From positions 65,956 to 129,955 of the forward strand of contig JAFWJA010000021.1 in assembly GCA_017511805.1 (NCBI GenBank): DNA of 64,000 nucleotides, read 5' to 3'. This document shows, one piece after another, positions 549-49,150 of the stretch (its first letter is position 1; each line of letters starts with the position of its first letter). The notes beneath the pieces were generated by a model. That model made no database searches and had not been told where the DNA came from. It was given only the letters and a program-made list of their open reading frames with translations. This DNA comes from Bacilli bacterium (GTDB taxonomy: Bacteria; Bacillota_I; Bacilli_A; RF39; UBA660). The translations under genes were made by a program, and so were the position numbers.

Positions 549-557
549 GAGGATTTT

Positions 558-11627: not shown

Positions 11628-11655
11628 AAAGAGTGGATTATTCCACTCTTTTTCA
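11628..11655. terminator. Bidirectional intrinsic terminator
   Basis: 10-bp stem aaagagtgga-ttat-tccactcttt followed by a T-run. Confidence 0.75.
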
Positions 11656-11667
11656 TATACCAAATAA

Positions 11668-12201: not shown

Positions 12202-12311
12202 ATAATTACCTCCAGTACAATAAACATTATAACATATATAGAAAGACAGGGGATATCCGGAGCCACATATGAAGACTAGTACAGGATGATAGAGAGGGGA
12301 ATAGGTTTTAC

Positions 12312-16092: not shown

Positions 16093-16094
16093 TA

Positions 16095-18057: not shown

Positions 18058-18072
18058 TTTTAAAAAAATAAG

Positions 18073-18108
18073 AAGCAAAATTAATTGCTTCCTTTTTCTT
18101 CCTTTTTT
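18073..18108 (+). terminator. Intrinsic terminator
   Basis: Stem gaagcaa-attaa-ttgcttc, then ctttttcttcctttttt. Confidence 0.7.
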
Positions 18109-18160
18109 ATAGTGCCTCTGATTTGCCGTTCGCTACATAAAAACATACACTTTTTAAACA

Positions 18161-18212
18161 TACCGATAACGGTATAAAACATATTGACAAATACTACCGA
18201 TAACGGTATAAT
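18161..18212 (+). promoter_or_regulatory. Consensus sigma-A promoter (TTGACA-N17-TATAAT) with two identical 16-bp operator-like repeats TACCGATAACGGTATA
   Basis: -35 TTGACA at 18184-18189, a 17-nt spacer, and -10 TATAAT at 18207-18212. The repeat occurs at 18161-18176 and 18195-18210; the second copy overlaps the spacer and -10. Each repeat is a 14-bp imperfect dyad (TACCGAT/AACGGTA). Confidence 0.7.
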
Positions 18213-18231
18213 ATAAACAGAGGTGAAAATT

Positions 18232-19158
18232 ATGGAATTTATGACTACAAAAGAAGCTGTGCAAAAATGGAATATTAGTGAAAGAAGAATAAGACAATTA
18301 TTACAAGATGGAAGAATTGAAGGTGCTGTTAAAGTAGGTAATAATTGGAATATTCCTATTAATGCTAATAAACCAGCTGATAAAAGAAGTGTTAAACTAG
18401 ATAATACTGAATTTAAATTTGATTTACCCGATAATTATTTTGATAAAGTTGATAAATTAAATAAAGAATTAAATTCAAAAAGACCTATATCAAAAGAAAC
18501 TTTAAAATCTTTAAAAGAATCTATTAATTTAGAGTGGACTTATAATAGTAACGGTATAGAAGGAAACACATTAACTTTAAGAGAAACACAAATTGTTTTA
18601 GAAGGTATTACTGTTGGAGGTAAATCTTTAAAAGAACATTTAGAGGTTATAAATCATGAACAAGCAATATTATTCTTAGATGATCTTATTAAAGATAAAG
18701 AACCTGTAACAGAATGGAATATAAAAAATATTCATCAATTAGTATTAAAAGAAATAGATGATGATAACGCTGGTAAATATAGAGATGAAAATGTAAAAAT
18801 AAAAGGTGCTACACATATTCCACCAGATTATTTAATAGTTCCAGAATTAATGGAAAAATTAATTATTAATTTTGAAGATTGGAAGAAATATCATCCGATT
18901 ATTAGAGCAGCATTATTACATGGTGAATTAGTTAAGATACATCCATTTGTTGATGGTAATGGTAGAACTTCAAGATTAGTTATGAACTTATCTTTAATGA
19001 ATAGTGGATATCTTCCAGTAATTGTAAAAAAAGAAAAAAGATTAGAATATTATAATGCTTTAGATAAAGCACATACTACTGGAGATTATACAGACTTTGT
19101 TAAATTAGTTAATAAATTAGAAATTGAAATGTTAAATAAATATCTAGAATTGTTGTAG
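18232..19158 (+). CDS. Fic-family protein with N-terminal MerR/excisionase-type HTH
   Basis: Canonical Fic motif HPFVDGNGRTSR. N-terminal inhibitory-helix-like motif SNGIEGN (S-x-x-x-E-G). N-terminal MTTKEAVQKWNISERRIRQLLQDGRIEG is an HTH. Likely start is ATG 18232 with RBS GAGGTG; the ORF track starts at GTG 18223. Confidence 0.8.
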   Translation: MEFMTTKEAVQKWNISERRIRQLLQDGRIEGAVKVGNNWNIPINANKPADKRSVKLDNTEFKFDLPDNYFDKVDKLNKELNSKRPISKETLKSLKESINLEWTYNSNGIEGNTLTLRETQIVLEGITVGGKSLKEHLEVINHEQAILFLDDLIKDKEPVTEWNIKNIHQLVLKEIDDDNAGKYRDENVKIKGATHIPPDYLIVPELMEKLIINFEDWKKYHPIIRAALLHGELVKIHPFVDGNGRTSRLVMNLSLMNSGYLPVIVKKEKRLEYYNALDKAHTTGDYTDFVKLVNKLEIEMLNKYLELL

Positions 19159-19168
19159 GAGGTATTAT

Positions 19169-21511: not shown

Positions 21512-21764
21512 TAAAACAAAAGTTGAATTACAATCAAATAATCCTAACATTAAGAATCTAGTTGAAAAAATATTAGATCAAGATGAAAAGTTTGATTTTA
21601 ATAATATAGAAATAGAATGTTCTGATGATAATTTTGATAAAGATAGTTTTAAAAAAATTATAGTTGATTCAGTGTTTGAATTTAAAAAACAGTTAATTAT
21701 CGAAGAAAAAGATAATAATGATAAAATTGAAAAAATAGAAAAAGAAAAGAAAAATAATGAATAA
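21480..21764 (+). CDS. Small K/E-rich hypothetical protein overlapping the 3' end of the PHP-ATPase gene
   Basis: 94-aa ORF with a 32-nt overlap to the upstream gene and an intrinsic terminator immediately after it. Confidence 0.4.
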   Translation: MEEKKIIVTIDKTKVELQSNNPNIKNLVEKILDQDEKFDFNNIEIECSDDNFDKDSFKKIIVDSVFEFKKQLIIEEKDNNDKIEKIEKEKKNNE

Positions 21765-21806: not shown

Positions 21807-22073
21807 ATGTCTGCACAGTTTTTGCACAACAATTTAGTTAAATTGTTGTGTAAAAAATTATATTTTTTTAAACTGTTTATACTATAAAGCGTTGATTTTA
21901 AAGGGTTTGTATTAATATGATTAACCCAACTTTTTGGGCCCCTGAAGAGAGCAACTCTAGTCTTTTTATCCACAAGATTTATTATAATATTTTTATAGAT
22001 ATAATAATTTTACTTTTTTGATAGCATAAATTATATAATAAGTGGTATAATGAAAAATAAAGGCAGTGTATTT

Positions 22074-24416
22074 ATGAATATGAAAGTATTATTAAAGAAA
22101 TTTGTAAATATAGTTAGAAAACATTATATTATTATAATGTTCTTTTTGCTATTTTTTTGTACAAGTACAAAGGCATATGCTTTGAGTTTTGAAATAGAGG
22201 ATGTTTCTATTAGTGATAAGAGTTCTACTGTTAGTACTGATACTATTAGTTATACTAGTAATGAAATTAGTAGTAATGTTACATTTAATTCAATAGATGA
22301 TTATGTTGTTTATGATATAAAGATAAAGAATAACGAAGATAAGTTGTTTAAAATAGAATCAATTAGTGATAATACTACTAATGATAATTTAGTTATTGGG
22401 TATGAAAAAGAGTCTGAGATAAAAGCTAAAAGTAGTTCTACTATTAGGTTAATTATGACTTATAAGAATAAACTTGTTAATAAGAATATTACATTAGATA
22501 ATTTAGAAATCACAATTAATTTTGTTGATGAGGGTGGAGAAGATAGTACTATAATAATTAATCCTGTTACAGGAGATAATATAGTTAGTTATTTAGTTTT
22601 ATTAATTATTTCATTAGTTGGTATAGGTTTTATTATAACTAATAAGAGATTAAAGCATTTAAAAATAGGAATTATTATTTTGGCTATATGTGTTATAAGT
22701 ATTCCTTTTGTTACTTTTGCGATTGAAGATTATAAATTTAGTTTTAAATTTAGTGATGTTGTTATTAATGGGGAGTTTGAGGAATATGATATTACGCTAG
22801 TAGATCAAGGGTCAAGCACATCTTTTAAAAGAACTTATGGAGAGGTATTAGGTACATTACCTAGTGCTTTTAAAGTAGGACATACATTTGATGGTTGGTA
22901 TAGTAATAATGTTTTAGTTAATGATAATACTGTTGTTAAGGGTCCTATGACAATAGAATCTAGATTTATTCCTAATAAACATACATTAACTATTAATGAT
23001 AGTGAATATGTTGAAACAGATACTCCTAGTGGAGAATATGATTATGGAACTGAAATAACTTTAAAGGCAAAGAATAGATTAGGCTATACTTTTGTTAAAT
23101 GGTCTAATGATAATACTGATACAGAGATAACATTTACTATTACTAGTGATATAGAAATTGGTCCTATTTATAGTCAAGATGTTTATACTATTATTTTTGA
23201 TTCTAAAGGTGGATCAGATGTTAGTAATAAAACTGGAACATATAATCAAGCATTAGGAACTTTAGAAAATCCTACTAAGCATAAATATAATTTTGATGGT
23301 TGGTATACTTTAGAAGATGGTGGAGAAAAAATAACATCTGATACTAAGATAACAGGTAATACTACTTATTATGCTCATTGGGATCCTATTGGATTTAATA
23401 CAGTATTTTCTCATGAAGGAGCATGTACATTTAATGCATATGATAATATAACTGGAGATGAATGTTCTGAATATTGGGATACTAATTATATAAATACTGG
23501 TATTGCTTTATTTAGTGAGGAAAATAATGGTAAAGATTTTGAGGCAGGATTTACTATAGTATCATATAATTCTGGTGATCAAACTAGTGAAAAGAATCAA
23601 GTATTTATGAGTGATAAAAAAGAAACTGGTGGAACTGCTATTGTACCTGGTATAGTAGCAAGAAGAAGTTCACAACCTAGTACTGCTATAGATATATCAT
23701 TTGGTAAAAATGGTAATAAAACAGGTGTTGATTTAACTACTACAATAAATACAATTAAGATGTTTAGAATTGATGGTAATATATATTATTCTATAAATGA
23801 TGGAGAAAAGGTTTTATTAAATAGTAATATTAGTGATTCAGATGTATTTAATGTACCTTTAACATTTGGTGCAGGATATACAGTTGATGGTTCAATATTA
23901 AGACCTGTTAAAGCTACTTTATCAAATATGTATGTAAAACTAGGTTATGTAGATTTAGATGACTATTATAAGATTACATACGATGGAACTGATGGATCTT
24001 TAGTAACTAATAGTAAATCTATATTAAAAGGTGATAAAATTGGTAATTTCCCTACTGGTACTAAAAATAAAAGTTATATAGCAGGATGGTCTTTAGAAAA
24101 TGGTAGCACTGATTATATTAATTCAAATTATGTACCAGATAGTGATATAACTTTATATGCTACATGGAAAAAGTCTATTGAAGTATTAAATGTTTCTAAT
24201 ACAAGCATTTCATTAAATGTAGGTGAAACAGAAAGTATAGTTATTACTAATCCAACTGAAGTAGAAGAAGAGTACTATTTTACTTCCAGTGATAACTCAA
24301 AAGCATCTGTTGATACAAATGGAGTTATAACTGCGAAAGCATCTGGTTCTGTAAATATATATTTGAGAGGTAGAGCATCAGGTAAATCAAAGACAATTAG
24401 AGTAACAGTTAATTAA
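22074..24416 (+). CDS. Cell-surface protein: signal peptide, about 130-aa N-terminal domain, internal NPVTGD sorting signal + TM + basic stretch, internal signal-peptide-like segment, InlB B-repeat (Listeria-Bacteroides repeat) domains, C-terminal Big_2 domain
   Basis: The ATG at 22050 lies inside the extended -10 TGGTATAAT, so the start is probably ATG 22074 (RBS AAAGG). Repeats GHTFDGWY..., GYTFVKWS... and YNFDGWY...YYAHW / LYATW are of the InlB B-repeat type. C-terminal SLNVGETESIVITN...SVDTNGVITAKASGSVNIY is Big_2-like. Confidence 0.65.
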   Translation: MNMKVLLKKFVNIVRKHYIIIMFFLLFFCTSTKAYALSFEIEDVSISDKSSTVSTDTISYTSNEISSNVTFNSIDDYVVYDIKIKNNEDKLFKIESISDNTTNDNLVIGYEKESEIKAKSSSTIRLIMTYKNKLVNKNITLDNLEITINFVDEGGEDSTIIINPVTGDNIVSYLVLLIISLVGIGFIITNKRLKHLKIGIIILAICVISIPFVTFAIEDYKFSFKFSDVVINGEFEEYDITLVDQGSSTSFKRTYGEVLGTLPSAFKVGHTFDGWYSNNVLVNDNTVVKGPMTIESRFIPNKHTLTINDSEYVETDTPSGEYDYGTEITLKAKNRLGYTFVKWSNDNTDTEITFTITSDIEIGPIYSQDVYTIIFDSKGGSDVSNKTGTYNQALGTLENPTKHKYNFDGWYTLEDGGEKITSDTKITGNTTYYAHWDPIGFNTVFSHEGACTFNAYDNITGDECSEYWDTNYINTGIALFSEENNGKDFEAGFTIVSYNSGDQTSEKNQVFMSDKKETGGTAIVPGIVARRSSQPSTAIDISFGKNGNKTGVDLTTTINTIKMFRIDGNIYYSINDGEKVLLNSNISDSDVFNVPLTFGAGYTVDGSILRPVKATLSNMYVKLGYVDLDDYYKITYDGTDGSLVTNSKSILKGDKIGNFPTGTKNKSYIAGWSLENGSTDYINSNYVPDSDITLYATWKKSIEVLNVSNTSISLNVGETESIVITNPTEVEEEYYFTSSDNSKASVDTNGVITAKASGSVNIYLRGRASGKSKTIRVTVN

Positions 24417-24446
24417 AAAGAAGTTAAAAATAACTTCTTTTTTTTG
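24417..24446 (+). terminator. Intrinsic terminator
   Basis: Stem aaagaagtt-aaaaat-aacttcttt, then a T-run. Confidence 0.75.
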
Positions 24447-24509
24447 TTGTTGAAAGACATTTTAATTTTTAGTATAATTAAATTAGATTGTATGATAGGA
24501 GGTGAGGGT

Positions 24510-24893
24510 ATGAAGAGAGTATTAAGTTTATTAATGGTATTTGTTGCTGTATTTAGTGTAACTATGTTAGTTGGTTGTGGAAGTAAAGCTGATTTAAGTA
24601 AATATGCTGGTACATATGAAGGACAATATACTAAGTTAGTTGGTGATGATACTAAGGATACATCTGATAAGTTCTCAGTTGAATTAAAAGAAGATGGTAC
24701 TGGTAGTTCTACTAGAGATGGTGCTACTTATGATATAACTTGGTCTATGGATGGAGATAAGTTTGAAATGACTGAGAAGTTTGCTGGTATGAAAATTGAA
24801 TATACTGGTACTTTAAAGAATGGTGAATTAAATATATTTAATGGACCAGAAGATGATGATTGGACTTATAATTACGTTTATAAAAAGAAATAA
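24510..24893 (+). CDS. Small lipoprotein
   Basis: Signal peptide with lipobox LVGCGSK. RBS GGAGGTGAGGG. Start ATG 24510 is in frame with the longer ORF that begins at 24444. Confidence 0.65.
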   Translation: MKRVLSLLMVFVAVFSVTMLVGCGSKADLSKYAGTYEGQYTKLVGDDTKDTSDKFSVELKEDGTGSSTRDGATYDITWSMDGDKFEMTEKFAGMKIEYTGTLKNGELNIFNGPEDDDWTYNYVYKKK

Positions 24894-24898
24894 TATAT

Positions 24899-24927
24899 AA
24901 CTAATGCTTAGCATTAGTTTTTTTTTG
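24899..24927 (+). terminator. Intrinsic terminator
   Basis: Stem aactaatgc-tta-gcattagtt plus T9. Confidence 0.8.
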
Positions 24928-25047
24928 GTAATAATTAGTAAAGTAATTTTAAAAAACTTGAGTAAAATAAGAATATAGTAGTTTTAGTATTGTTTAAATA
25001 TTGAAATTATGTTATGATTAATTAAGATAGTAGAGGTGTTTGTAGTA

Positions 25048-28000
25048 ATGGTAAAAAGGAAGAATAAGCTATCGATTCTTTTTATTTTTACAGTTATGAT
25101 TTCCGTATTATTTATAGGGAAAGTTTTTGCGTCTTCAAACATCATTAAACTTACAAACATCCAAATAAAAGATCAAACTTCGGGAGTAGATGCGAGTATA
25201 GATAGTTATAATGCGAATACTGTTAATACTAGTAATGATTACCATGCGGTTAATAATTATGTAGAGTATATTTTAACAATATTAAATACTGATTCTAAAC
25301 CATATTCAATTAAGTCTATTAGTGATACTAATACTAATCCGAATATTAAATATGATTATTATGATTATAAAGATAAGATTTTAAAACCTAATTCTACAGT
25401 ACAAATATTAATTAGAGAAACTTATAATACAGAGAATGCTGATTTAACTAATAGAAGTTCTTCAAATAGTGTTAAGTTCTTATTTAATCTGGTTGATGAA
25501 GATGGAGTAGAGATATATTATGATGGTGATAATCCTACTACTGGTGATCAGATTATGAAATATGTTATTATATTTGGAATATCAATAGTAGCGTTAATTG
25601 CTTTAATATTTATAATCTGGAAATTTAAGAAGGGTAAAAAGTTAATGGTTCTTCTACTATTTGGATTATTAATGATACCTGGATTTGTTAGAGCAGAAGA
25701 TGTAGAAGCTACTATAACATTTAATAATAATATCGATTTATTAGATAAAGTAAAAGTAACATTTAATTATAACGGAGTAACTAGAGAGTCTATTATACAA
25801 TACGATAGCAGTGTAACAGAGCCTAGTGTTCCTAATAAGAATGGATATATATTCTTAGGTTGGTTCAATAATGGAAACTTATTTGATTTTAGTACAAGAT
25901 TAACTAGTGATATAACACTTGAAGCTGATTACTTAAAAGAAAGTTATACAATAACATATGACTTAGATGGCGGTAATGCTTCTAATCCTGGTGTATATAA
26001 AGTAACTGAATTACCGATAGCACTTAATAATCCAGTTAAAGATGGATATACATTTATAGGATGGACTGGTAGTAATGGTACAACACCTCAAAAAGACTTA
26101 ACTATTACTAACAAGAGTGAAAATTTAAATTATAAAGCAAATTATACTATAAACACTTATACAATAGCTTATGAAGGATTAACTGAAGCAGAAATGACTA
26201 CTTTAAATAATCCAGATACTTATAATATAGAAGATACAATAACATTAAATAATCCAGCGAATAGATTAGATAATGATGGAGATCTAGCATATAGATTTAT
26301 AGGTTGGAAAAATGATACAAATGATGTTTCAAAAACAATTACTATAACTAATAATACTGGTGTTAAATCATATGAAGCTGTATGGTTACCAGTTGCACCT
26401 GATACTTACACAATTACTTATGAATTACATGATGGAACTATCGATGGTACTAATCCGTTAACTTTTAACAAGTTAACTCCAAGTTTTACCTTACTTAATC
26501 CTACAAAGAGAGGTTACTCATTTGATGGATGGATAGGGAGTAATGGTGATGTACCACAAACTAGTGTTACTATTAATCAAGGAACTAAACAAGATTTAGA
26601 GTTTGAAGCTATATTCACTAAAATAGATTATCCGATAGCATATGATCTAGATGGTGGATCAGTAGCAGTAGCTAATCCTGTTACTTATACAGTAACAGAT
26701 ACAGTTACATTAAATAATCCTACTAAGAGAGGATATAATTTCTTAGGATGGTCTGGTACAGATATAGAGGGAATGAGTACTAGTGTTACTATTCCAGTTA
26801 ATTCTATAGGAGAAAGATCATATAAAGCTAATTATGAAATAATAGAATATACAATTACTTATGATTTAGATGGAGGAGCAGTTACTGGTAATCCAACTAC
26901 TTATAAAGTTACAGATACAATTAATTTATTAGCACCTACTAAATTAGGACATATATTTACTGGTTGGACAGGTAGTAACGGACAAACACCTCAAACTAAT
27001 GTTACTATTACTAATTCAATAGGTAATTTAAGTTATACTGCTAATTATGAAGGTGGAGCATATTATGTTCATTTTGATAAGAATGATTCTTTAGCAACAG
27101 GTACTATGGAAGATGAACAAATGCAAGTAGATCTTTCTAAAGCATTAACATCAAATAAGTTCTATAAGAAAGATTATGTATTTGATGGATGGACTACAAA
27201 TCAAGATGGTACAGGTACTGTATATGCTGATGGTGAATCAGTTACTAATTTAGTTATGAGTGGTACTATTACACTATATGCTAAATGGAGACCTGTTAAG
27301 AAAGCTATATTTGATACAGGATCTAAAGTAAATATTAGAATGAAGACTTTATCTGGACAAAGTGGTGCCGCAACAGGAACTAATAATAGTATTATTAAAA
27401 AGGTTAAGTATGTGGATCCAGTACCACAAGATAAACAAATAACTGATAATATTATATCTAGTGCTGCTAGTCAGTATAAGGTATATATGTGGTATGATTC
27501 AGATGAAAAGATTATATATTATGGTAAAGAAGATGACGCAGATGAGATTTATTTAGGTAAAGATGGAGCATACATGTTCAATTACCTATATGAATGTACA
27601 GAAATAGATACTAACTTTAGAACAGATGATACACAAAACTTTACTCAAATGTTCTGGAGAGACGTTAATCTAGAAGTATTAGATGTTAGTCACTTTAAGA
27701 CAAATGAAGCGAAGAGTTTCTCTTCTATGTTTGGTGAGTGTGCTAAGATTCCATCATTTGATTTAAGTGGATGGGATGTTAGTGGTGCTAAAACATTTAC
27801 ATTTATGTTTAACCAATGTGCATCTATAACAGAGTTAGATTTAACTAATTGGGTTACAACAAGTGCAGAAACTATGAAGAATATGTTTAGTAGTACTACT
27901 AACTTAAGTACTTTAAAAATACCTAATTTTGTAACATCAAATGTTACAGATATGCAAAAGATGTTTGATAACATGCCTAGCATACAATCTTTAGATCTTA

Positions 28001-28407
28001 GTCATTTTGATACATCTAAAGTTACTGCTATGAACCAAATGTTTGAGAACATGACAAGTTTAACAAGTTTAAATATTTCAAGTTTTAATACAGCTAAGGT
28101 TAAGAACATGGAAAAAATGTTTAAAGGAACAAATCAATTACAAACACTTGATATTAGTAGCTTTAATACATCAATAGTTACTAATATGAATAATATGTTT
28201 AGTGAAATGAGTGCATTAACAACAATTTATGTTAGCTCATCATTCACAACTTCTTCAGTTACGTCAACTCCAGTAATGTTTGCATCAGATACAAACTTAG
28301 TTGGTGGAGCTGGAACTCATTGGAGTTCATCAAATACTAAGAAGGATTATGCAAGAATAGATAGACCTGATCTTAGTCAACCAGGTTATTTCACAGAAAA
28401 ACAATAA
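25048..28407 (+). CDS. Large cell-surface protein: signal peptide, N-terminal domain paralogous to the 22074 gene, internal NPTTGD sorting signal + TM + KFKKGKK, internal signal-peptide-like segment (..GFVRA/ED), about 7 InlB B-repeat domains, C-terminal DUF285/'26-residue surface-protein repeat' array
   Basis: RBS AGAGGTG lies 9 nt upstream of ATG 25048. Repeats GYIFLGWFNNG, GYTFIGWTGSNGTTPQ, GYSFDGWIGSNG, GYNFLGWSG, GHIFTGWTGSNG and FDGWTTNQDG...LYAKW. C-terminal repeats FDLSGWDVSGAKTFTFMFNQCASITELDLTNW, SNVTDMQKMF and TSKVTAMNQMF are of the DUF285 type. Confidence 0.7.
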   Translation: MVKRKNKLSILFIFTVMISVLFIGKVFASSNIIKLTNIQIKDQTSGVDASIDSYNANTVNTSNDYHAVNNYVEYILTILNTDSKPYSIKSISDTNTNPNIKYDYYDYKDKILKPNSTVQILIRETYNTENADLTNRSSSNSVKFLFNLVDEDGVEIYYDGDNPTTGDQIMKYVIIFGISIVALIALIFIIWKFKKGKKLMVLLLFGLLMIPGFVRAEDVEATITFNNNIDLLDKVKVTFNYNGVTRESIIQYDSSVTEPSVPNKNGYIFLGWFNNGNLFDFSTRLTSDITLEADYLKESYTITYDLDGGNASNPGVYKVTELPIALNNPVKDGYTFIGWTGSNGTTPQKDLTITNKSENLNYKANYTINTYTIAYEGLTEAEMTTLNNPDTYNIEDTITLNNPANRLDNDGDLAYRFIGWKNDTNDVSKTITITNNTGVKSYEAVWLPVAPDTYTITYELHDGTIDGTNPLTFNKLTPSFTLLNPTKRGYSFDGWIGSNGDVPQTSVTINQGTKQDLEFEAIFTKIDYPIAYDLDGGSVAVANPVTYTVTDTVTLNNPTKRGYNFLGWSGTDIEGMSTSVTIPVNSIGERSYKANYEIIEYTITYDLDGGAVTGNPTTYKVTDTINLLAPTKLGHIFTGWTGSNGQTPQTNVTITNSIGNLSYTANYEGGAYYVHFDKNDSLATGTMEDEQMQVDLSKALTSNKFYKKDYVFDGWTTNQDGTGTVYADGESVTNLVMSGTITLYAKWRPVKKAIFDTGSKVNIRMKTLSGQSGAATGTNNSIIKKVKYVDPVPQDKQITDNIISSAASQYKVYMWYDSDEKIIYYGKEDDADEIYLGKDGAYMFNYLYECTEIDTNFRTDDTQNFTQMFWRDVNLEVLDVSHFKTNEAKSFSSMFGECAKIPSFDLSGWDVSGAKTFTFMFNQCASITELDLTNWVTTSAETMKNMFSSTTNLSTLKIPNFVTSNVTDMQKMFDNMPSIQSLDLSHFDTSKVTAMNQMFENMTSLTSLNISSFNTAKVKNMEKMFKGTNQLQTLDISSFNTSIVTNMNNMFSEMSALTTIYVSSSFTTSSVTSTPVMFASDTNLVGGAGTHWSSSNTKKDYARIDRPDLSQPGYFTEKQ

Positions 28408-28428
28408 AAACTATAAAGGAGGACACTT

Positions 28429-31400
28429 ATGGATACAGTAAAACATTATATTAAATATTTTGTTTTAGCTATCGCTTTATTACTACTAGTTAATATTGGT
28501 AGTGCTAAAGCTGCTACTGACGTTATATTGAAATTTACAGATGCCGGTATTGAAGAAACTGTATCTGGAAGTGGATATATAATAAACGGTACATCTCTTG
28601 AAATAATAAATTCTGGAACATATATTATTAAAGGAAGTTGTACTGAAGGTAATATTTCCGTTAAAAAGGGAACAACAGGTGTAACAATAGTTTTAGAAGA
28701 CTTACAATTATCGTCTTCTAAAACTGCACCTATTACAGTTAAAAAAGATGGAGCACAGGTTGATTTCTGGTTAAATGGACATTCTGTTATCGTAGATAAT
28801 GAGGATCCATCTCAAGAATTCTCTCCTGATCCAGAAGTAGCAGATCTATATGAAGGAGCTGCTATAAAAGTAAAATCTGGTTCTAGTGTCTCATTTGCAG
28901 GTGCTGGAATTATAGATATTGAAAGTAGACATAATAACGCTATTAAAGGTGCATCAGAAGCATCAATTACATTTAATACAGGTATCTTTAATATAAGTGC
29001 AGGTAATAGTGGTGTATCTTGTGATGGTACTATTACTCTTAACAATGGACACTTAACTATAGATGCTGCTAATGAAGGTATTAAATTATCTCCTAATGAA
29101 GATGATACTACATCACTAGCTAAATTCGTTAATAATGGTGGAAAAGTTGTTATTTCTGCAGGACAAGATGGTATACAAGCACAAGGTGATATAGAAATAA
29201 ATGGATGGTCTGAAATAGAAATAGATTCTAAAGAGGATGCTATCCAAACTAGATCAAACTTTACTATGACTAATGGTAGAGTAGTAATTCATACATTTGA
29301 AGGATATAATACACCTAACTTTGATCCAGATATTATGAGTGCTAAAGGTATTAAAGCAGCTAAAACAGATGAACAAACAGAAGATGCCACTAATACAATT
29401 AATATCACAGGTGGAACTATATATATAGATTCAAGTGATGATGCTATTCACTCAGATGCATATGTTAATATTACTAGAGGTACTGTTACAGCATTATCTG
29501 GTGATGATGGTATACATGCTGATACTAAATTAGTAATAGGTAGTCAAGGTGGTCTTAGTAGAGACCCAGAAATAACAATAAGAGAAAGTGTTGAAGGTAT
29601 TGAAGCTGGAAACATTTATGTATATTCTGGTAAAACTAGTGTATATGCAATAGATGATGGTATGAACGCTGCTGGTGGAGCTTCATCAGGTGGTGGAAAA
29701 GAACATGGTGAACACTTTAATCCAGACACAGGACAAATGGAAGAAAATTATGCTATATATGTATATGGTGGAAATATCTATGTTAACTGTGAAGGTGATG
29801 GATTAGATGCCAATGGTAGTTTATATTTATATGGTGGTACACAAATAATTTATCACCAAGATGCTCAAGGTAATAACTCAGCTCTAGATAGAGACCATAA
29901 ATTAGTTATTGATGGAGCTACAGTATTTGCAGCAGGTGGTGTTGCAGATAATGGACGTATTGATTCAACAGGTAGTTCACAAAAAATAATAATTGATGAT
30001 ACAACAGATTATTCTGCTAATAGTAAGGTAGTTGTTAGTGATAATGGAACTCCAGTATTTAATGATCAAATACCAAAGAGATCAGTTTATACATTCTATT
30101 CGAGTCCAAGTCTTGATAATGGTTCTATTAGTACAACAAGTACAATAGCAGATTTAAATAATAATCCATGGAATCATAATTTTGATGATGGTGTTATAAC
30201 TACACCTGCTACTCCTAGTACACCAGGAGTTATAACTTATACATGTCAAGATGATGGTTATACAGAATCTAAAACATATTTCTATAAAGGTGAAGTAACA
30301 TTTACTTTCGTTAATAAAACAAATGGACAAGCAAGTATAACAGTAGGTTCTACTACAAGTAGTACAAACTTTGTAACTAACGAACCAGATGAATTTATAT
30401 ATATGACTACTACTGAAGACGTAGAGTTAATAGCTACTAAAGATGGATTAGATTATCAAACTATGTTCCCAGAATCAACAAGTGATCCAAATACTGTTAG
30501 ATTCCATGCAAATCCATCTACTACAAAGACATTCTATGTAGTATTAGATGGTGATGTTAATATGGATGGAGTAGCAGATATAGATGACTCTACTATTATA
30601 GCTAGATCATTATTATCTAGTAGTGATCCTAGATATGTAGAATTATCATTAATACAAAAAGTTTTAGCGGATATTAATGATGATGGATTAATAAATTCTC
30701 ATGATGGTTTAGCAATTATAAAAGATTTAACAGGAACAGATAAATATGATGAAAGTTACTTTGGTATTACATCTATAGATCCAGTTATATTAGATGGAGA
30801 ACATGATGGAGAAGCAACAGTTTCATTCTATACTAAGAAAGCTATATTTATAGACGCAATGGATGGTAGATATTCACCATCAAAAGAATATCCAAGTACA
30901 AATGGATATCTTGAATTAAGTGATATTCAAGGTTCATATGATCAAGTACAATATTCATTAATAGATGTTAATAGTGGATTTGCTGGCGCAGTTGATACTA
31001 ACGGATTAAGCATTCCAAAAGACACTGTACTAGTTACATTAAAATATAAAGTTGATAAAGATACTCCAACTGGTACATATCCAGTTAAATTAAGAATTGA
31101 TTCAGTAACTGCTCATGATTCAAAGATACCAACATCATTTGAAATAAAAGCAGATGTAATTGTTAAAGGACAAAATACTCCAACAAGTGCATTCTTTGTT
31201 GCAGATGATGGAGTAGCAGGTATTGATGTATATCATACACAAGATTATTCTCATTCAGATGAAGTAGATGTTACTTCTACTGCTATTAGGGATTCTGTTA
31301 CTGGAGAATTAATTCCACCTGGTGGAGAAGGACAATTAAATTTCTTAGTTAAACCAAAAATGGGTTATATAGTAACAAATGTTGAAGTAACTCCATCAGC

Positions 31401-34400
31401 ACACTTTAAACAAGTAAAAGGACCTGCTGATACAGATCAACCAAATACTTTTAGAGTTACTAAAGTAACTGGTGATATAGAAGTAGTAGTTACTACTAAA
31501 AAAGCTAGTGAATTTACTGCAACATTTGATATTGATGAAAATAAAATAGAAGCAATTGATGTATATTATACACAAGATTATACTACTCCAGATGAAACAG
31601 GAGTAACAGAGACTCTAGTAAGAAATGGAGATACTGGTGCAATAGATATATCTGGTGATGGACAAGTTAACTTCAAAGTTATACCAAAACCAGGATATAA
31701 AGTAGATTCTGTTAAAGTATCTGGTACTTATAAGAATATTAAAGATCAAGGCAATAATATTTATCGTGTTACTAAGGTTAGTGGAGATATTATAATTAAG
31801 GTTAAGGGAGCTGAAAAAGAAACAATAGTTCCTGAAGTAACTGGATATTCTCCAAGTCATGTTTATACTGGTTCTAAGATAAAACCAGCTATAACAGTTA
31901 ATATCGCAGGTACAGAAACTACATTAGTTAAGAATACAGATTATACTATTGAATATGGTACTAATAAAGATGTAGGTACTGGTACAATTACTATTAATCC
32001 AGTAATGACAAGTGCATATTTATTTAATCCAACTACTGTTACATTTGATATTACTCCATATACATTAACAAGTTCTAATGTTGAAGTACCAAGTGCAATT
32101 GTTTATACAGGAGATCCATTATCTCCAGAAGTAACAGTTACTCATGGAAGTACTACTTTAGTAGAAGGTACAGACTATGAAGTATCATATGCTAACCAAG
32201 ATGGCATGGTAGGAGAATCTGTAAATGTTATTGTTACAGGTAAAGGAAACTTTACTGGTGTAGTAAATGATAAAGAAGTACCTATTACTGCTAAAGCTAC
32301 TCAAACTATAGTATTTGAACATGATGAAATAACTAAGATATATGGTAGTGATTTCACACAAGTAGCTAACTTAGTTGTAGGTGATGGTACTATTACATAT
32401 TCATCATCTAACCCAGCAGCTGCTACTGTTGATCCAGTAACTGGTGCTGTAACATTAGTAGCAACAGGACAAACTTATATCCGTGCTACTGCTAGTGAAA
32501 CAGAAAACTATGCTGAAACAACTGTAAGATATAAATTAATTGTTAAGAAAGCAGATATAGCTATAACAGGTGTTACTGTATCTGATAAAGATTATGATGG
32601 TACTAAGACTGCTACTGTTACTGGTGTAACATTTAGTGGATTAGTTAAATCAGAAGAGTTAGTAATGGGTACTGATTATACAGTAACAGGATTATTTAGC
32701 GATGCTGAAATAGGTACTGATAAAGAAGTAACTGTTACAGTAGATTTATCTGTAGCAACTTTATCTAGATATGCATTAGCTAATAATACCGCAATAGGTA
32801 CTGCAAGTATTAATCCAATTTCTATAACAGAAAATGATATAACATTAAGTGATAGTACTTATGAATATGATGGTACTGAAAAGACTCCAACAGTTTCAGT
32901 AGTAACAGGTGGACAAACATTAGTAGAAAATGTTGATTATAAAGTAAGTTATATAGATAATGTTAATGAAGGAGAAGCATACGCTGTTATTGTTGGTATT
33001 GGTAATTATAGTACTAATACTCCAATAACTAAAGTATTTACTATTACTCCTAAAACTATAACTCCAACTATTGAAGCTATAGAAGATCAAGAGTTCACTG
33101 GTTCTGAAGTTCAACCAGCAATAGTAGTTAAAGATGGAACTACTACATTAGTAGAAGGTACTGATTATACAGTTTCTTATGCTAATAACATTGTAATAGG
33201 TACAGCAGATGTAACAATTAGTCCAGTTGATGGAGGTAATTATACATTTGATGATACTGATCCTAGTGCTAGTACAACATTTGATATAGTTCCATATACT
33301 ATTAAAGAAGAAGATATAACACTAGAATATACATTTGTTAAATATGATGGAAGTGCTAAAACACCATCTGTTACAGTAACATTAAATGGTAATGTATTAA
33401 CTGAAAATACTGATTATACAGTAGCATACAGTAATAACAATGTAGTTACTGAAACTGCTAAAGTAACAGTAACAGGACTTGCTCCTAATTATACTGGTAC
33501 TCCAGAAGTATTCTTTGAAATATCTGATAAAGACTTATTAACAATAAGTGGAATTAATAATCAATCAGTAACATATACTGGTGAAGAAGTAGAATTAGAA
33601 GGAACATTAACTGTTTCAGAAAATACAGATAATATAACTGTAGATGATTTAACAGTTAAATATTATGATAGTTCAGATAATGAAATAGAAAGACCAACTA
33701 ATGTAGGTGCTTACTATGTAGTATATAGTTATGATGGAGCTAATTATAAAGGTGAAACTAGAGTAGACTTTGAAATAACTAAAAAGGAATCTAGTATACC
33801 TAGTGAAGTAAGTTCTAACTTACAAGGTGTAGTTCATGATAGTTTAAATACAATAGTATTTACTACATCAGGACTTGCTTGGGAAGATGGAACTACTAGT
33901 ATAGCTCCAGAATCTAATACATATCCAGCTATATATACTGAAAACAATGATACAATTAATTACACTACAATAAATGTTAATATACCAGTTTATGGTAAAC
34001 AAGTAATTGATATTAATACAAGTGTTGATGGTGCAGGAGGAACAATTACAGACTCTATGAATGATGTAGTTGAAGGGACTCCTAAAACTATTACTTTAGA
34101 TCCTAATGAAGGATATGAAGTAGATGCAGTATATATCAATAATGAAGAAGTACCTGTTTCTAATAATCAATTAGAAATAACAGCGGGTTCATCTGATATG
34201 AATATTGTTGTTAAATTTAAAACTACTGAATATAGTATGAATATATCTGGTGATAATTCATATGTAGATCCATATGGTATTATTAATGTAGAACATAATT
34301 CTGCAATGGAATTAACTATATCTGCTAAACCAGGATATAGGTTATCATCAGTAAAAGTTAATAATGAAGAAAAAATAACAGATTTGACTAGTGATAAATT

Positions 34401-34884
34401 AACAGTAGGTAATATTACAGATGATACTAAAGTTTCTGCTACTGCAGAAAGAATTACTTATGAAGTAATTGAAGGTGCTAGACAAGAATATGTTATTAAT
34501 AGAGATACATATGCTAGATTTGTAATAAATGCTGATTATGATTTATTTGAAACAGGTGGAAAAGTATTAGTAGATGAAAAAGAAGTAGATGCTAAGTATT
34601 ATACTTCTGAATCTGGTAGTACAGTAATAGTATTTAACAGAGAATTCATGGATAGCTTATCATTAGGTGCTCATTCATTTAGAGTAGAATTTAATGATGG
34701 TGGTGAAGCATCTTGTACATTTAGAGTAGCGTTATTGAAATATCAAGATAAAGAAGATATTGTTAATCCTACTACTGGTGATACTATTACTAAAGTAATT
34801 AATATATTTATTATTAGTTTAATAGTAATAATTGGAATTATTTTAATAGCAAATAGAAAGACTATTAAGAAATTATTTAAATAA
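28429..34884 (+). CDS. Giant (2151 aa) sortase-anchored surface protein: signal peptide, beta-helix (Cthe_2159-like) domain, type-I dockerin, cohesin-like module, Ig-like and multiple MBG (YGX-type) repeats, C-terminal NPTTGD sorting signal + TM + basic tail
   Basis: RBS AAGGAGG 21 nt after the upstream stop, so it is co-transcribed. The dockerin has two 12-residue Ca-binding-like loops, DVNMDGVADIDD and DINDDGLINSHD. The cohesin-like stretch is VTLKYKVDKDTPTGTYPVKLRIDSV. MBG repeats follow the pattern TLVEGTDY(E/T)VSYAN...G.A.V.VTGKGNYTG. The C-terminus is VNPTTGDTITKVINIFIISLIVIIGIILIANRKTIKK. Confidence 0.65.
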   Translation: MDTVKHYIKYFVLAIALLLLVNIGSAKAATDVILKFTDAGIEETVSGSGYIINGTSLEIINSGTYIIKGSCTEGNISVKKGTTGVTIVLEDLQLSSSKTAPITVKKDGAQVDFWLNGHSVIVDNEDPSQEFSPDPEVADLYEGAAIKVKSGSSVSFAGAGIIDIESRHNNAIKGASEASITFNTGIFNISAGNSGVSCDGTITLNNGHLTIDAANEGIKLSPNEDDTTSLAKFVNNGGKVVISAGQDGIQAQGDIEINGWSEIEIDSKEDAIQTRSNFTMTNGRVVIHTFEGYNTPNFDPDIMSAKGIKAAKTDEQTEDATNTINITGGTIYIDSSDDAIHSDAYVNITRGTVTALSGDDGIHADTKLVIGSQGGLSRDPEITIRESVEGIEAGNIYVYSGKTSVYAIDDGMNAAGGASSGGGKEHGEHFNPDTGQMEENYAIYVYGGNIYVNCEGDGLDANGSLYLYGGTQIIYHQDAQGNNSALDRDHKLVIDGATVFAAGGVADNGRIDSTGSSQKIIIDDTTDYSANSKVVVSDNGTPVFNDQIPKRSVYTFYSSPSLDNGSISTTSTIADLNNNPWNHNFDDGVITTPATPSTPGVITYTCQDDGYTESKTYFYKGEVTFTFVNKTNGQASITVGSTTSSTNFVTNEPDEFIYMTTTEDVELIATKDGLDYQTMFPESTSDPNTVRFHANPSTTKTFYVVLDGDVNMDGVADIDDSTIIARSLLSSSDPRYVELSLIQKVLADINDDGLINSHDGLAIIKDLTGTDKYDESYFGITSIDPVILDGEHDGEATVSFYTKKAIFIDAMDGRYSPSKEYPSTNGYLELSDIQGSYDQVQYSLIDVNSGFAGAVDTNGLSIPKDTVLVTLKYKVDKDTPTGTYPVKLRIDSVTAHDSKIPTSFEIKADVIVKGQNTPTSAFFVADDGVAGIDVYHTQDYSHSDEVDVTSTAIRDSVTGELIPPGGEGQLNFLVKPKMGYIVTNVEVTPSAHFKQVKGPADTDQPNTFRVTKVTGDIEVVVTTKKASEFTATFDIDENKIEAIDVYYTQDYTTPDETGVTETLVRNGDTGAIDISGDGQVNFKVIPKPGYKVDSVKVSGTYKNIKDQGNNIYRVTKVSGDIIIKVKGAEKETIVPEVTGYSPSHVYTGSKIKPAITVNIAGTETTLVKNTDYTIEYGTNKDVGTGTITINPVMTSAYLFNPTTVTFDITPYTLTSSNVEVPSAIVYTGDPLSPEVTVTHGSTTLVEGTDYEVSYANQDGMVGESVNVIVTGKGNFTGVVNDKEVPITAKATQTIVFEHDEITKIYGSDFTQVANLVVGDGTITYSSSNPAAATVDPVTGAVTLVATGQTYIRATASETENYAETTVRYKLIVKKADIAITGVTVSDKDYDGTKTATVTGVTFSGLVKSEELVMGTDYTVTGLFSDAEIGTDKEVTVTVDLSVATLSRYALANNTAIGTASINPISITENDITLSDSTYEYDGTEKTPTVSVVTGGQTLVENVDYKVSYIDNVNEGEAYAVIVGIGNYSTNTPITKVFTITPKTITPTIEAIEDQEFTGSEVQPAIVVKDGTTTLVEGTDYTVSYANNIVIGTADVTISPVDGGNYTFDDTDPSASTTFDIVPYTIKEEDITLEYTFVKYDGSAKTPSVTVTLNGNVLTENTDYTVAYSNNNVVTETAKVTVTGLAPNYTGTPEVFFEISDKDLLTISGINNQSVTYTGEEVELEGTLTVSENTDNITVDDLTVKYYDSSDNEIERPTNVGAYYVVYSYDGANYKGETRVDFEITKKESSIPSEVSSNLQGVVHDSLNTIVFTTSGLAWEDGTTSIAPESNTYPAIYTENNDTINYTTINVNIPVYGKQVIDINTSVDGAGGTITDSMNDVVEGTPKTITLDPNEGYEVDAVYINNEEVPVSNNQLEITAGSSDMNIVVKFKTTEYSMNISGDNSYVDPYGIINVEHNSAMELTISAKPGYRLSSVKVNNEEKITDLTSDKLTVGNITDDTKVSATAERITYEVIEGARQEYVINRDTYARFVINADYDLFETGGKVLVDEKEVDAKYYTSESGSTVIVFNREFMDSLSLGAHSFRVEFNDGGEASCTFRVALLKYQDKEDIVNPTTGDTITKVINIFIISLIVIIGIILIANRKTIKKLFK

Positions 34885-34925
34885 TAGGACTAGCTAATGC
34901 TAGTCCTTGTTTGTATGGAGGACTT

Positions 34926-46188: not shown

Positions 46189-48570
46189 ATGAAAAAATTA
46201 TTTTCAGTTTTAATAATTTTTGCTTTGTTATTTAATATGTTCTTTCCTAGTACCATAGTACTTGCGGATAGTATTAATTCTAGTGAAGCAATAGAAGGAA
46301 CTTATCAATATTCTTCTGATGAGGGAAGTAATATTCAAAGTCAAAATAGTTTTATATATAGAGATGATTGTTTTATTAGATCATCCTTTTTAGGTTGTAA
46401 GCATTTAGAAATATTATCAATGCAGGTAGCTAGCGCATCAGTTAGTTATTATGGACCTAATATAGATAAATATGAAATAGATTCAACAGTTAGTTCTCAT
46501 AATTTAGTTAAAATGTTACAAGACATGAAGTTTAATAATGTTTCAATAAATAAGTATTATACGACTGAAAAACATGAGAATTCTATGGGAGTAGCGGTTG
46601 CTCAAAAAGAAATAATTCAATCTGGTGAAAAATATACTCTTTTAGCAATAGTTCCAAGAAGTGCTGGTTATAAAGAGGAATGGGCTGGTAATTTTACTGT
46701 TGGTGATATGGATATACATGATGGATTTAAACAAGCTAGAGATGAAATATTAAGATTTGTAAAAAAATATATTAATGAAAATAATATAGAAGGAAGTTTG
46801 AAAGTTTGGATTCCTGGTTGGAGTAGAGGAGCAGCTGTTGCTAATATGCTTGGTGGTTTCTTCGCTGGTGGTGGAATTGAATACTTTGGTGATAATGTAT
46901 CTATTAATCCAGAAGATATTTATTGTTATTCAATGGGTACTCCAAGTACAGTTAAAAATGGTTTAGATAAAAATGTAGAACTTAGTGTAAGTGGTAAACG
47001 TAGTAATCCAGAGTATATAGATGACACTGAAGGAGAATCTTATTCTTATACAAAAGGTGGAACAGTAGATGTAACTGATCCAATATATAATGGTATTAGA
47101 AGTATCATTGATCCAGATGATTTCTTTCCATTATTACCTCCAGAAGATTGGGGTTTTACTCACTATGGAATAGTAATAGATCCTAATGATGGTTTAGATT
47201 ATGGATCATTCTTAAATGAACTAAATAGTATTAGTCCATATGTATATAGTATTTATACTGGTATTGGTGATTTAAAAGCATTACCTAAAAAGACATTTGA
47301 TTTAAAAACATTATCTACAGTTGATACTGGTGAAACAATCGCTATAGTTGATCTTTTAAAACAAAGAATAGCGGGTATGGTTAATGAAGTTAAAACTAAT
47401 AAAGAATATAAAAATAATGGCTATGAAGAAGCTTTAACAGCGTTTGCTGGTGTATTTGGAATGGGACTAGTATTCTTATTTGATAGTTCAGAATCAGGAC
47501 TAGATTCTAATTCCGCAATTAGTGCACTTGCTTATAGTTATCTTGCTTATGTATCAGAACTTCTTCAAGAAGAAGGAAAAGCAGATAATGAAAATAGCGC
47601 AATTACTTTAGCTTTAGAAGATGTATTAACTTATTTCACAGGAGAAGAAATAGATGATTCTACTTTTACTGTGGATAGTTTCTTAGAATTATTTGCTAAA
47701 TATATTTCAGAAAATGAAAATGAACCAGTTGCGGATGCGGTTATTAATGGAATAATGAATATTGTTCCGGAAGAAAATAAAATATTCTTATCTGCTTTTA
47801 AATCATTTTATCCAACTGATGATCCAGATTCAATTACAATAGAAGATGGGTTAAAGGCATTTATTAAGGCATGTTACTATGGACCAGATCCAAATAGTAG
47901 TGTAGTAAATTATTATGAAAATGCTGAAAAAGTTAGAAGCTTATTATGTATTACTATGATTATGTTTCTTCAGTCGGATGATCCAGAGATTCAAGAAATG
48001 TTCACAGATGATGAAGGTAATATAACTGGTAAAGCTGCTAAATTTAGTGATGCTATTAGAAAAATTATGGATAGAATTAAAACAGTTAAAGATGATGAAG
48101 GTAATGTAATAAAAACATATAATGATATGAGTGAATTAGCTGATGATAAATTAATTGAAATGCTTGAAAATAATAAAGTAAATATGCTTACAAAGAGTGA
48201 AGAATTATATGGAGTAGATTATAAAAATGAATTAAGTAGACAAATAGATAAATTAGAGAATAATATAACTAATTTTAGAAAGATTATTTCTTCTTTATTC
48301 TTTTATTCAGAAAATGGTTATAGTACTAAAACAATTCTTGAAAATTGTATGAGTTTAGTAGGTAATGCAAGTGCTATTCCATTAATGCATTATAATGAAA
48401 TATATGTAGCTAAAGCAAGAACTTCGAATAGATATGAAAACCATGTTGATGAATCTGATATTATTAATCCAGCAACTGAAGATGGAGTTAAATCCTATAT
48501 CTTATTATTTTCATTAAGTATAATAGGTATTCTTATAATAAGAATAATAAAAATAAAAAAACTAACATAA
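46189..48570 (+). CDS. Secreted alpha/beta-hydrolase (lipase/esterase-like, GxSxG) with C-terminal membrane anchor
   Basis: Signal peptide MKKLFSVLIIFALLF. Nucleophile elbow GWSRGAAVAN. C-terminal hydrophobic tail SYILLFSLSIIGILII followed by KIKK. Confidence 0.4.
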   Translation: MKKLFSVLIIFALLFNMFFPSTIVLADSINSSEAIEGTYQYSSDEGSNIQSQNSFIYRDDCFIRSSFLGCKHLEILSMQVASASVSYYGPNIDKYEIDSTVSSHNLVKMLQDMKFNNVSINKYYTTEKHENSMGVAVAQKEIIQSGEKYTLLAIVPRSAGYKEEWAGNFTVGDMDIHDGFKQARDEILRFVKKYINENNIEGSLKVWIPGWSRGAAVANMLGGFFAGGGIEYFGDNVSINPEDIYCYSMGTPSTVKNGLDKNVELSVSGKRSNPEYIDDTEGESYSYTKGGTVDVTDPIYNGIRSIIDPDDFFPLLPPEDWGFTHYGIVIDPNDGLDYGSFLNELNSISPYVYSIYTGIGDLKALPKKTFDLKTLSTVDTGETIAIVDLLKQRIAGMVNEVKTNKEYKNNGYEEALTAFAGVFGMGLVFLFDSSESGLDSNSAISALAYSYLAYVSELLQEEGKADNENSAITLALEDVLTYFTGEEIDDSTFTVDSFLELFAKYISENENEPVADAVINGIMNIVPEENKIFLSAFKSFYPTDDPDSITIEDGLKAFIKACYYGPDPNSSVVNYYENAEKVRSLLCITMIMFLQSDDPEIQEMFTDDEGNITGKAAKFSDAIRKIMDRIKTVKDDEGNVIKTYNDMSELADDKLIEMLENNKVNMLTKSEELYGVDYKNELSRQIDKLENNITNFRKIISSLFFYSENGYSTKTILENCMSLVGNASAIPLMHYNEIYVAKARTSNRYENHVDESDIINPATEDGVKSYILLFSLSIIGILIIRIIKIKKLT

Positions 48571-49105: not shown

Positions 49106-49150
49106 ACTAAAAAAAGAATTATTATTTTCTTAATAATAATTCTTCTTTTT
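49106..49150 (-). terminator. Intrinsic terminator (12-bp stem) overlapping the stop of the 49122 gene
   Basis: Stem agaattattatt-ttctt-aataataattct with T-runs on both sides. Confidence 0.7.

Follow-up and report, generated by a model that had tools for sequence, protein, structure and literature searches.

An internal sorting signal followed by a signal-peptide-like segment in a large family of surface proteins from uncultured gut Bacilli

How might a bacterial surface protein be held on its cell when the sorting signal lies near the front of the chain and hundreds of residues follow it? To our knowledge, textbook sortase anchoring is C-terminal only, with the pneumococcal Zmp/IgA1 proteases as the one documented exception. 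The question is raised by two paralogous genes in a stretch of 64,000 nucleotides (nt) from an uncultured Bacilli bacterium (GenBank assembly GCA_017511805.1, contig JAFWJA010000021.1, positions 65,956 to 129,955), termed the window here and numbered from its first letter. Gene 1 encodes 780 amino acids (aa) and gene 2 encodes 1119 aa, and both products share the same order of parts: a signal peptide, an immunoglobulin (Ig)-like domain, the sortase motif NP(V/T)TGD, a hydrophobic helix, a basic loop, a second hydrophobic segment, and InlB B-repeats. An earlier note on this DNA had proposed that the internal motif and the internal segment may be processed separately, so that one precursor yields two products. 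Comparison with more than 1000 related protein clusters now suggests that the N-terminal module is probably a means of attaching these proteins to the cell wall by the front of the chain.

Two signals inside one N-terminal module

The N-terminal regions of the two proteins are paralogous (28% identity, BLASTP E = 5e-15) and are followed by long repeat-bearing passengers, with 564 further residues after the second hydrophobic segment in the gene 1 product and 903 in the gene 2 product. The InlB B-repeat model Flg_new matches the two products with 105.6 and 161.1 bits, respectively (cut-off 27); Flg_new_2 also matches both, and a further B-repeat model, TIGR02543, matches with 57.2 and 153.3 bits. 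Pfam additionally places a Big_2 domain at the end of the gene 1 product, and gene 2 encodes a DUF285 array (PF03382, 193.8 bits, cut-off 25; TIGR02167, 117.9 bits versus 30). Neither gene product has a C-terminal hydrophobic tail or anchor. The earlier note had described this same content from the letters alone, namely that both proteins have B-repeats, that the larger adds DUF285 and that a C-terminal anchor is lacking; every part of the paired internal signals that it had read in both genes was found in the sequence, and its coordinates and residue strings were correct. Its gene lengths were partly revised: the start of gene 1 at 22074 (780 aa) was kept, and the GTG start that gave gene 2 a length of 1123 aa was replaced by the ATG at 25048 (1119 aa), which the gene calls favor, the upstream GTG being less likely.

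The module is widespread. A profile of 241 columns, made from both N-terminal modules and searched against 1.84 billion representative proteins, gave 1127 matches at E <= 1e-3, of which 632 reached E <= 1e-10 and 114 reached E <= 1e-30. The matches nearly always span the whole module through the second segment and lie at the N-terminus of proteins of 200-3800 aa encoded by single long open reading frames (ORFs). With 1127 representatives matching, nearly always over the whole module, its occurrence is far beyond chance. A word-indexed homology search with the gene 2 N-terminus returned no match, and the same kind of search with an 18-sequence profile returned at least 6 proteins; it was the exhaustive search with the 241-column profile that brought the family to light. 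Conservation was counted in the best 150 of the 1127 matches, and the denominators given hereafter (149, 145, 143 and 129) are subsets of these.

The first of the two signals is the sorting signal. The motif, NPxTxD in the family at large, has its median position at residue 162 of the homologues and stands at residue 163 of 780 in gene 1 and at residue 162 of 1119 in gene 2. Its Asn is kept in 143/149 sequences, its Thr in 149/149, Gly at the fifth position in 103/149 and the final Asp in 146/149. In the homologues a hydrophobic stretch of 19-24 aa comes next, and then a loop of 4-13 aa with a net charge of +3 to +7. Pentapeptide motif, hydrophobic stretch and positively charged tail are thus all present, although the signal is internal rather than at the extreme C-terminus, where sorting signals usually lie. 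In three C-terminally anchored proteins of the same clade, NPxTxD with a hydrophobic stretch and a basic tail does form the C-terminal end. One is the 2151-aa surface protein encoded downstream of gene 2 (NPTTGD), whose tail is of the same form as the internal signals, as had been noted earlier. Another is a 793-aa protein with a weak Lipase_3 match (NPATED), a second presumed ordinary substrate of the same presumed sortase, and the third is a Cna_B/SpaA protein in related locus L035 (NPKTLD). In these canonical signals the fifth residue varies and the sixth remains Asp, and the internal copies behave likewise. A candidate enzyme is encoded beside one family member: related locus L024 carries a class B sortase gene at 4680-5420 (+) (TIGR03064, 192.6 bits versus a cut-off of 153.75), located 110 nt upstream of a gene for a 2252-aa member.

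The second hydrophobic segment starts at approximately residue 198 in gene 1 and 199 in gene 2, is 18-19 aa long, and ends in TFA before Ile or VRA before Glu, so that both genes show P-x-x-[V/T]-x-A. Homologues share the pattern P-x-x-[VAIT]-x-A, in which the Pro is invariant, an Ala stands five residues after it in 133/145 sequences, and Val, Ala, Ile, Thr or Ser stands three residues after it in 139/145. The residue four after the Pro is free and often Lys, and the one after the predicted signal-peptidase site is not conserved (Ala 41, Leu 19, Lys 17, Asn 16, and others). The distance from the basic loop to the Pro is usually just 9-13 residues. With its basic n-region, short h-region, helix breaker (the Pro at -6) and small residues at -3 and -1, the segment resembles a type I signal peptide of the cleavable sort, although its location is internal and not N-terminal as is usual for signal peptides. 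The two signals are interlocked, the basic tail of the sorting signal doubling as the n-region of the second segment. The hairpin predicted to be excised, counted from the Gly of the motif to the Ala, comprises 40-59 residues (median 49).

Judged by these counts, both internal signals are under purifying selection. The alternative offered in the earlier note, that the genes are fusions that merely kept both targeting signals, is at odds with such selection on both signals over more than 1000 clusters. The family appears to share a portable N-terminal cassette composed of the first signal peptide, a PapD-like Ig domain, NPxTxD, a putative stop-transfer helix, a basic loop, a putative internal signal peptide and a B-repeat-like domain, the last of which follows the second site in the members aligned. 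A C-terminal hydrophobic tail is found in only 4/129 long members; because nearly all of them do without one, the N-terminal module is their only anchoring element.

The domain between the first signal peptide and the motif (the N-domain) is approximately 125-130 aa long in both proteins, and no Pfam or NCBIfam model was found over it. Its structure was predicted with AlphaFold2 (AF2) from gene 1 residues 3-322 (translation from 22080) and an 18-sequence alignment. Model residues 37-150 form a beta-sandwich with a predicted local distance difference test score (pLDDT) of 82-92, NPVTGD lies in a flexible linker (pLDDT <50), and two adjacent helices follow at 167-187 and 191-211. Residues 219-298 then form a further confident domain (pLDDT ~90), which Foldseek superposes on the InlB B-repeat 2y5p_C with a target TM-score of 0.80. 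The N-domain itself is modelled as a 7-8-stranded beta-sandwich that superposes on structures of the PapD-like / MSP / ASH Ig-fold superfamily. Identity to the N-terminal domain of WxLIP/DUF916 proteins and to other PapD-like/MSP Ig domains is only 9-15%, family models stay below their thresholds, and WxLIP proteins differ further in having a C-terminal membrane anchor where the proteins described here have a sortase motif and then a second signal-peptide-like segment. A cohesin-like, pilin-like or CARDB/DUF11 identity was considered and set aside, as only sub-threshold Ig-family matches were obtained. With the whole-module model, Foldseek against the PDB gave generic Ig matches and an architecture-level resemblance to PmoB; this resemblance is not taken as a sign of homology.

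Proposed dual processing and its alternatives

Processing by both sortase and signal peptidase is, on balance, the likeliest mechanism for this module. The polyprotein idea of the earlier note is the best-supported reading by sequence statistics and analogy because both processing sites are conserved; the cleavages themselves and the fate of the passenger we infer. The positive-inside rule, applied to the segments in their order, predicts a topology with the Ig domain outside, a first helix running inward, the basic loop inside, a second segment running outward, and the passenger outside. On this topology, the first signal peptide would start Sec export and the Ig domain would be translocated until the sorting-signal helix stops transfer, leaving the basic loop in the cytoplasm. 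The second hydrophobic segment would then re-initiate export, bringing the repeat passenger outside as well. A class B sortase would cut NPxT before the next residue and link the Ig domain covalently to peptidoglycan, and a type I signal peptidase would cut after P-x-x-[VAIT]-x-A, freeing the passenger from a discarded membrane hairpin of approximately 50 residues. On the most economical reading, the passenger may finally stay on the cell by binding non-covalently to its own wall-anchored Ig domain, with its C-terminal end pointing outward.

A comparable design has been reported and proposed for the M26 zinc metalloproteases of streptococci and Gemella (IgA1 protease/ZmpA, ZmpB, ZmpC and ZmpD), which likewise have a signal peptide, a sortase motif near the N-terminus and two hydrophobic segments. 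Their second segment has been proposed to be a second signal peptide (PMC3518915, citing Bender & Weiser 2006 and Takenouchi-Ohkubo et al. 2006), and the N-terminus of mature IgA1 protease lies 56 residues downstream of LPXTG (PMC9637739), a distance to be compared with the predicted 40-59 residues (median 49) in the present family. Their retention on the cell depends on sortase: pneumococci with srtA knocked out are depleted of ZmpB and, in one dataset or more, of IgA1 protease as well, despite the N-terminal position of the sorting signal (PMC13604702). An N-terminal LPXTG is listed in reviews as a peculiarity of these four proteases (PMC7939560). The present family differs in several respects. 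The motif is NPxTxD instead of an LPXTG cut by sortase A, and it is a class B sortase gene that adjoins one related member (L024). No YSIRK pattern, which modules of the Zmp type often carry in the signal peptide, is present in either signal peptide, and a confidently modelled, folded Ig domain of approximately 125 aa lies between the first signal peptide and the motif. The passengers, which consist of InlB B-repeats, DUF285 and other adhesin-like arrays, contain no M26, HExxH or G5 domain by Pfam and NCBIfam; the hosts are uncultured ruminant-gut Bacilli; and the family is very large, with many kinds of passenger. Homology to the Zmp proteins at the sequence level was not detected and is not claimed; only the logic and the geometry are shared, so that the family resembles the Zmp module in its working without belonging to it.

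Several points weigh against dual processing as set out above. The argument for a cleavage site depends on conservation statistics, and the second segment of the gene 1 subfamily, at approximately 19 residues, could span the membrane uncleaved. The general anchor model TIGR01167 (LPXTG_anchor) reaches 16.2 bits on the gene 2 N-terminal fragment alone (aa 167-199), barely above its cut-off of 15.9; it falls to 15.0 bits on the full-length gene 2 product and does not match gene 1. A sortase gene stands beside a family member in only 1 of approximately 25 related loci examined, none was found in the window or in the 10 kb that flank it on each side, and a scan for the TLxTC motif of sortases found no match in the window or in loci L001-L006. 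The whole-module AF2 model has a predicted TM-score (pTM) of only 0.55, and the docking of passenger to Ig domain is something we infer. Non-covalent retention is accordingly the weakest step, and the passenger may instead simply be released into the medium, an equally simple alternative. Docking is favored because the passengers are without any other anchor, the aligned members have a B-repeat-like domain, and ZmpB is depleted when sortase A is lost.

The most serious competitor to dual processing is a hairpin that is never cut, in which a permanent membrane hairpin displays the Ig domain and the repeats, with or without removal of the Ig domain by sortase. The two adjacent helices of the AF2 model and the length of the second segment in the gene 1 subfamily are both compatible with such a hairpin, as is the top whole-model Foldseek match, PmoB/AmoB, a membrane protein built as beta-domain, two helices and beta-domain (with poor superposition); moreover, a membrane tether would explain surface retention without a non-covalent complex. 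However, a permanent helix would have no cause to keep a signal peptidase I pattern in which an invariant Pro is followed by a small residue at the third position and, almost without exception, by Ala at the fifth. The 9-13 residues between basic loop and Pro in many members are short for a stable span, the strict conservation of NPxTxD, matching that of canonical C-terminal signals, is left unexplained, and the mature streptococcal enzyme starts after the second segment (PMC9637739). An uncleaved hairpin is therefore rather unlikely. Much less probable is that sortase joins the Ig domain to the passenger, through a lysine or the new N-terminus, thereby excising the hairpin or building polymers. 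The predicted topology does make the two cut ends neighbors outside the membrane, and among the class B sortases there are pilus polymerases whose nucleophiles are protein lysines. Even so, the residue after the signal-peptidase site, which would become the new N-terminus, is not conserved, no pilin-like lysine motif was noticed, and the canonical C-terminal substrates with the same motif favor ordinary wall anchoring.

The two halves might also be made as two proteins. The earlier note had pointed to an in-frame ATG at 25645 behind AAGGG in gene 2, and this codon is indeed present, with a purine-rich stretch 10 nt upstream; the upstream part would then be an ordinary small sortase substrate that is read through by accident. 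Such a substrate exists as a stand-alone form in locus L016, where a stop follows directly after the hydrophobic helix and RKSR. As a general internal start, however, the ATG fails: gene 1 has no Met there, a Met within the loop or where the second segment begins occurs in only 17/143 homologues, which makes the ATG of gene 2 incidental, and no stop codon intervenes in more than 140 homologues. A peptide starting MVLLLF... would also miss the basic n-region, which only the upstream loop supplies, and internal initiation is thus highly improbable. More remote still is an assembly error, a frameshift or a pseudogene fusion of two adjacent genes. Disrupted copies do occur, as illustrated by an in-frame TGA in locus L002, but the 6.45 kb from 22001 to 28450 differ by 0-2 mismatches among the four loci retrieved, which come from independent assemblies of different samples and in which the genes were called independently as 780 aa and 1119 aa. 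Because the locus is near-identical in four independent assemblies and more than 1000 clusters have the uninterrupted architecture, the two-gene locus is not an assembly artefact. The check for split two-gene homologues that had been proposed earlier gave a consistent answer, the homologues being overwhelmingly single ORFs.

Variants, locus and surroundings

No regular two-gene split form was indicated among the homologues checked. P0124, considered as a split version, is merely cut by a contig end, and P0138/L016 is a genuine stand-alone small protein on a 742-bp contig. Encoded at 156-704 (+), this 182-aa protein consists of a signal peptide, the Ig domain, NPNTGD, a hydrophobic stretch, RKSR and a stop; it would be an ordinary small sortase substrate, either ancestral or a truncated derivative. 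The TGA of L002 (1930-1932) lies within the first helix at a position that is mostly Gly in relatives, and both frame and homology continue beyond it; it is probably a nonsense mutation (GGA to TGA?) or a sequencing error in the metagenome-assembled genome (MAG). Locus L011 (6265-11203, +) carries four tandem paralogues of 396-400 aa with a divergent module in which NPNTSS replaces NPxTGD. They have a hairpin of the same kind, a site of the form ...PITT(N/Y)A and a passenger of approximately 190 aa without a Pfam match, and they lie among ribosomal and translation genes.

The DNA has a G+C content of approximately 26%. Terminator-like hairpins at 21819-21856, 24899-24919 and 34886-34907 delimit two groups that resemble transcription units, the first consisting of gene 1 and a small lipoprotein gene, and the second of gene 2 and, after 22 nt, the gene for the 2151-aa surface protein (Table 1). 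This neighbor of gene 2 is carried by 17 metagenome contigs. Its domains include Cthe_2159 (a carbohydrate-binding beta-helix), a weak dockerin-like match, YDG, CBM_X2 and Big_2. Directly downstream, at 34926-36122 (+), lies a gene for a 398-aa protein without a family match, which has an N-terminal third extremely rich in Lys and Thr, three acidic repeats (PAEEDYKYEGPAEEPKITFDDI), one membrane helix and an extracellular C-terminal part.

Table 1. Genes of the window that carry an internal or C-terminal sorting signal, their parts, and the lipoprotein gene between the two paralogues
Feature	Position	Strand	Basis or boundary
Gene 1, 780 aa; N-terminal anchor module and InlB B-repeat/Big_2 passenger	22074..24416	+	ORF; four assemblies; Pfam Flg_new, Flg_new_2, Big_2
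Gene 1, putative first signal peptide MNMKVLLKKFVNIVRKHYIIIMFFLLFFCTSTKAYA, cut ...TKAYA before LS	22074..22181	+	Basic n-region, hydrophobic core and A-Y-A site, read from sequence
Gene 1, N-domain, PapD-like/MSP-type Ig beta-sandwich; the portion that would end up on the wall	22182..22559	+	
Gene 1, internal sortase motif NPVTGD	22560..22577	+	pLDDT <50, flexible linker
Gene 1, hydrophobic helix NIVSYLVLLIISLVGIGFIITN (22 aa) and basic loop KRLKHLK	22578..22664	+	AF2 helix 167-187
Gene 1, second hydrophobic segment IGIIILAICVISIPFVTFA, signal-peptide-like, predicted cut before IED	22665..22721	+	Conserved Pro/Ala pattern
Gene 1, passenger: B-repeat-like first domain, further InlB B-repeats, Big_2 at end	22722..24413	+	AF2, Foldseek, Pfam
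Small lipoprotein gene, lipobox LVGC, between both paralogues	24507..24893	+	Terminator-like hairpin 24899-24919 after it
Gene 2, 1119 aa; N-terminal anchor module, InlB B-repeats and DUF285/PARCEL leucine-rich array	25048..28407	+	
Gene 2, putative first signal peptide MVKRKNKLSILFIFTVMISVLFIGKVFA, cut ...GKVFA before SS	25048..25131	+	Read from sequence
Gene 2, N-domain, paralogous to gene 1 N-domain	25132..25530	+	28% identity, E = 5e-15; aligned with relatives
Gene 2, internal sortase motif NPTTGD	25531..25548	+	TIGR01167 near cut-off
Gene 2, hydrophobic helix (24 aa) and basic loop KFKKGKK	25549..25641	+	
Gene 2, second hydrophobic segment LMVLLLFGLLMIPGFVRA, signal-peptide-like, predicted cut before EDV; holds in-frame ATG 25645	25642..25695	+	
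Gene 2, passenger: B-repeats and DUF285 array	25696..28404	+	Pfam/NCBIfam
2151-aa surface protein, ends NPTTGD, hydrophobic helix, NRKTIKKLFK	28429..34884; signal 34765-34881	+	Hairpin 34886-34907
793-aa protein, weak Lipase_3 match, ends NPATED, hydrophobic stretch, KIKKLT	46189..48570; signal 48466-48567	+	

The locus is flanked by genes for UvrA/B, WhiA, Lgt and PRPP synthetase and is therefore assigned to the chromosome; Megablast against plasmids gave no match for the region. The best genome relatives comprise 'Bacilli bacterium' MAGs obtained from the ileum of a goat and the omasum of a water deer, together with UBA7476; like the sample names (XIEF21), they point to uncultured ruminant-gut Bacilli. 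Peptidoglycan and sporulation genes in related loci encode penicillin-binding proteins, Amidase_3/LysM proteins, SpoIVA and YunB, and by this gene content the hosts of the module family have peptidoglycan and form spores. Two peptidoglycan hydrolases with Amidase_3 and LysM domains, at 38737-39963 (+) of the window and at 11439-12473 of locus L017, fit a peptidoglycan wall in the organism, as does a Hydrolase_2 (SleB-like) gene at 41156-41596 (-) of the window.

Directly upstream of gene 1, a run of genes at 14986-21764 (+) resembles a defence island. It encodes a type II D12 adenine methyltransferase, a 133-aa ORF, a GmrSD/HEC-06-like nuclease and a Fic protein, as well as a 780-aa protein with Ppl / PDC-M49A / PtuA-like ATPase matches and an overlapping 94-aa ORF. 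The window also holds genes for a T4SS-DNA_transf/TraG coupling-protein homologue and a PcfJ-like protein (49122-50432 and 13152-14507, both on the minus strand), two Fic proteins and an Abi_2 protein. These TraG, PcfJ-like, Fic and Abi_2 genes may be what is left of integrated conjugative elements in the neighborhood of the surface-protein locus.

Probable N-terminal anchoring among known surface systems

Relative to canonical class B substrates (such as the NPQTN and NPKTG proteins), the module has the same pentapeptide, hydrophobic stretch of 19-24 aa and basic tail, but the signal is internal, at approximately residue 160 of proteins of 200-3800 aa, and its basic tail has a second use as an n-region. 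Proteins of the CwpV/SlpA type in Clostridioides difficile also produce, from one precursor, a wall-binding N-terminal fragment and a variable repeat fragment that remain non-covalently associated. In that system CWB2 repeats bind the wall non-covalently, cleavage is autocatalytic or performed by Cwp84, and there is no sortase signal, hairpin or internal signal peptide. The membrane logic proposed here is also that of the envelope polyproteins of flaviviruses and alphaviruses, in which a stop-transfer helix and a short cytoplasmic loop precede an internal signal sequence that restarts export and is cut by signal peptidase beyond the membrane, giving two exported products from one chain; these are eukaryotic endoplasmic-reticulum systems without transpeptidation to a cell wall. 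Given the Zmp precedent, the design is not new in principle, and the family is, as its sequences indicate, a large, unannotated and apparently independent version of N-terminal sortase anchoring.

Members of the ten clusters looked up are all metagenomic, with uninformative names, and for this reason the family has neither a model nor a paper; literature searches on internal sorting signals, NPXTG and polyprotein themes found no published description of it. The family is a large, so far unnamed group of surface proteins of uncultured, spore-forming, peptidoglycan-bearing gut Bacilli, and its N-domain deserves a Pfam or NCBIfam family model of its own. Predictors that look only at the C-terminus will mislabel such proteins as polytopic membrane proteins or as secreted. 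Since its anchor domain is structured and its motifs are both short and sharply conserved, the family also offers a cleaner model than Zmp for the retention of a passenger. That the same logic is reached with unrelated parts, in more than 1000 protein clusters and with diverse passengers, argues that N-terminal sortase anchoring is a general strategy. In its fullest form, which we put forward tentatively and consider less probable than dual processing itself, the module would be a general, self-contained device: an Ig domain fixed to the wall by a class B sortase, and a passenger freed by signal peptidase that docks on it, perhaps through its B-repeat-like first domain. Proteins of up to approximately 3800 aa would then point their C-terminal end outward, and the cassette would be a modular platform recombined with hundreds of passengers.

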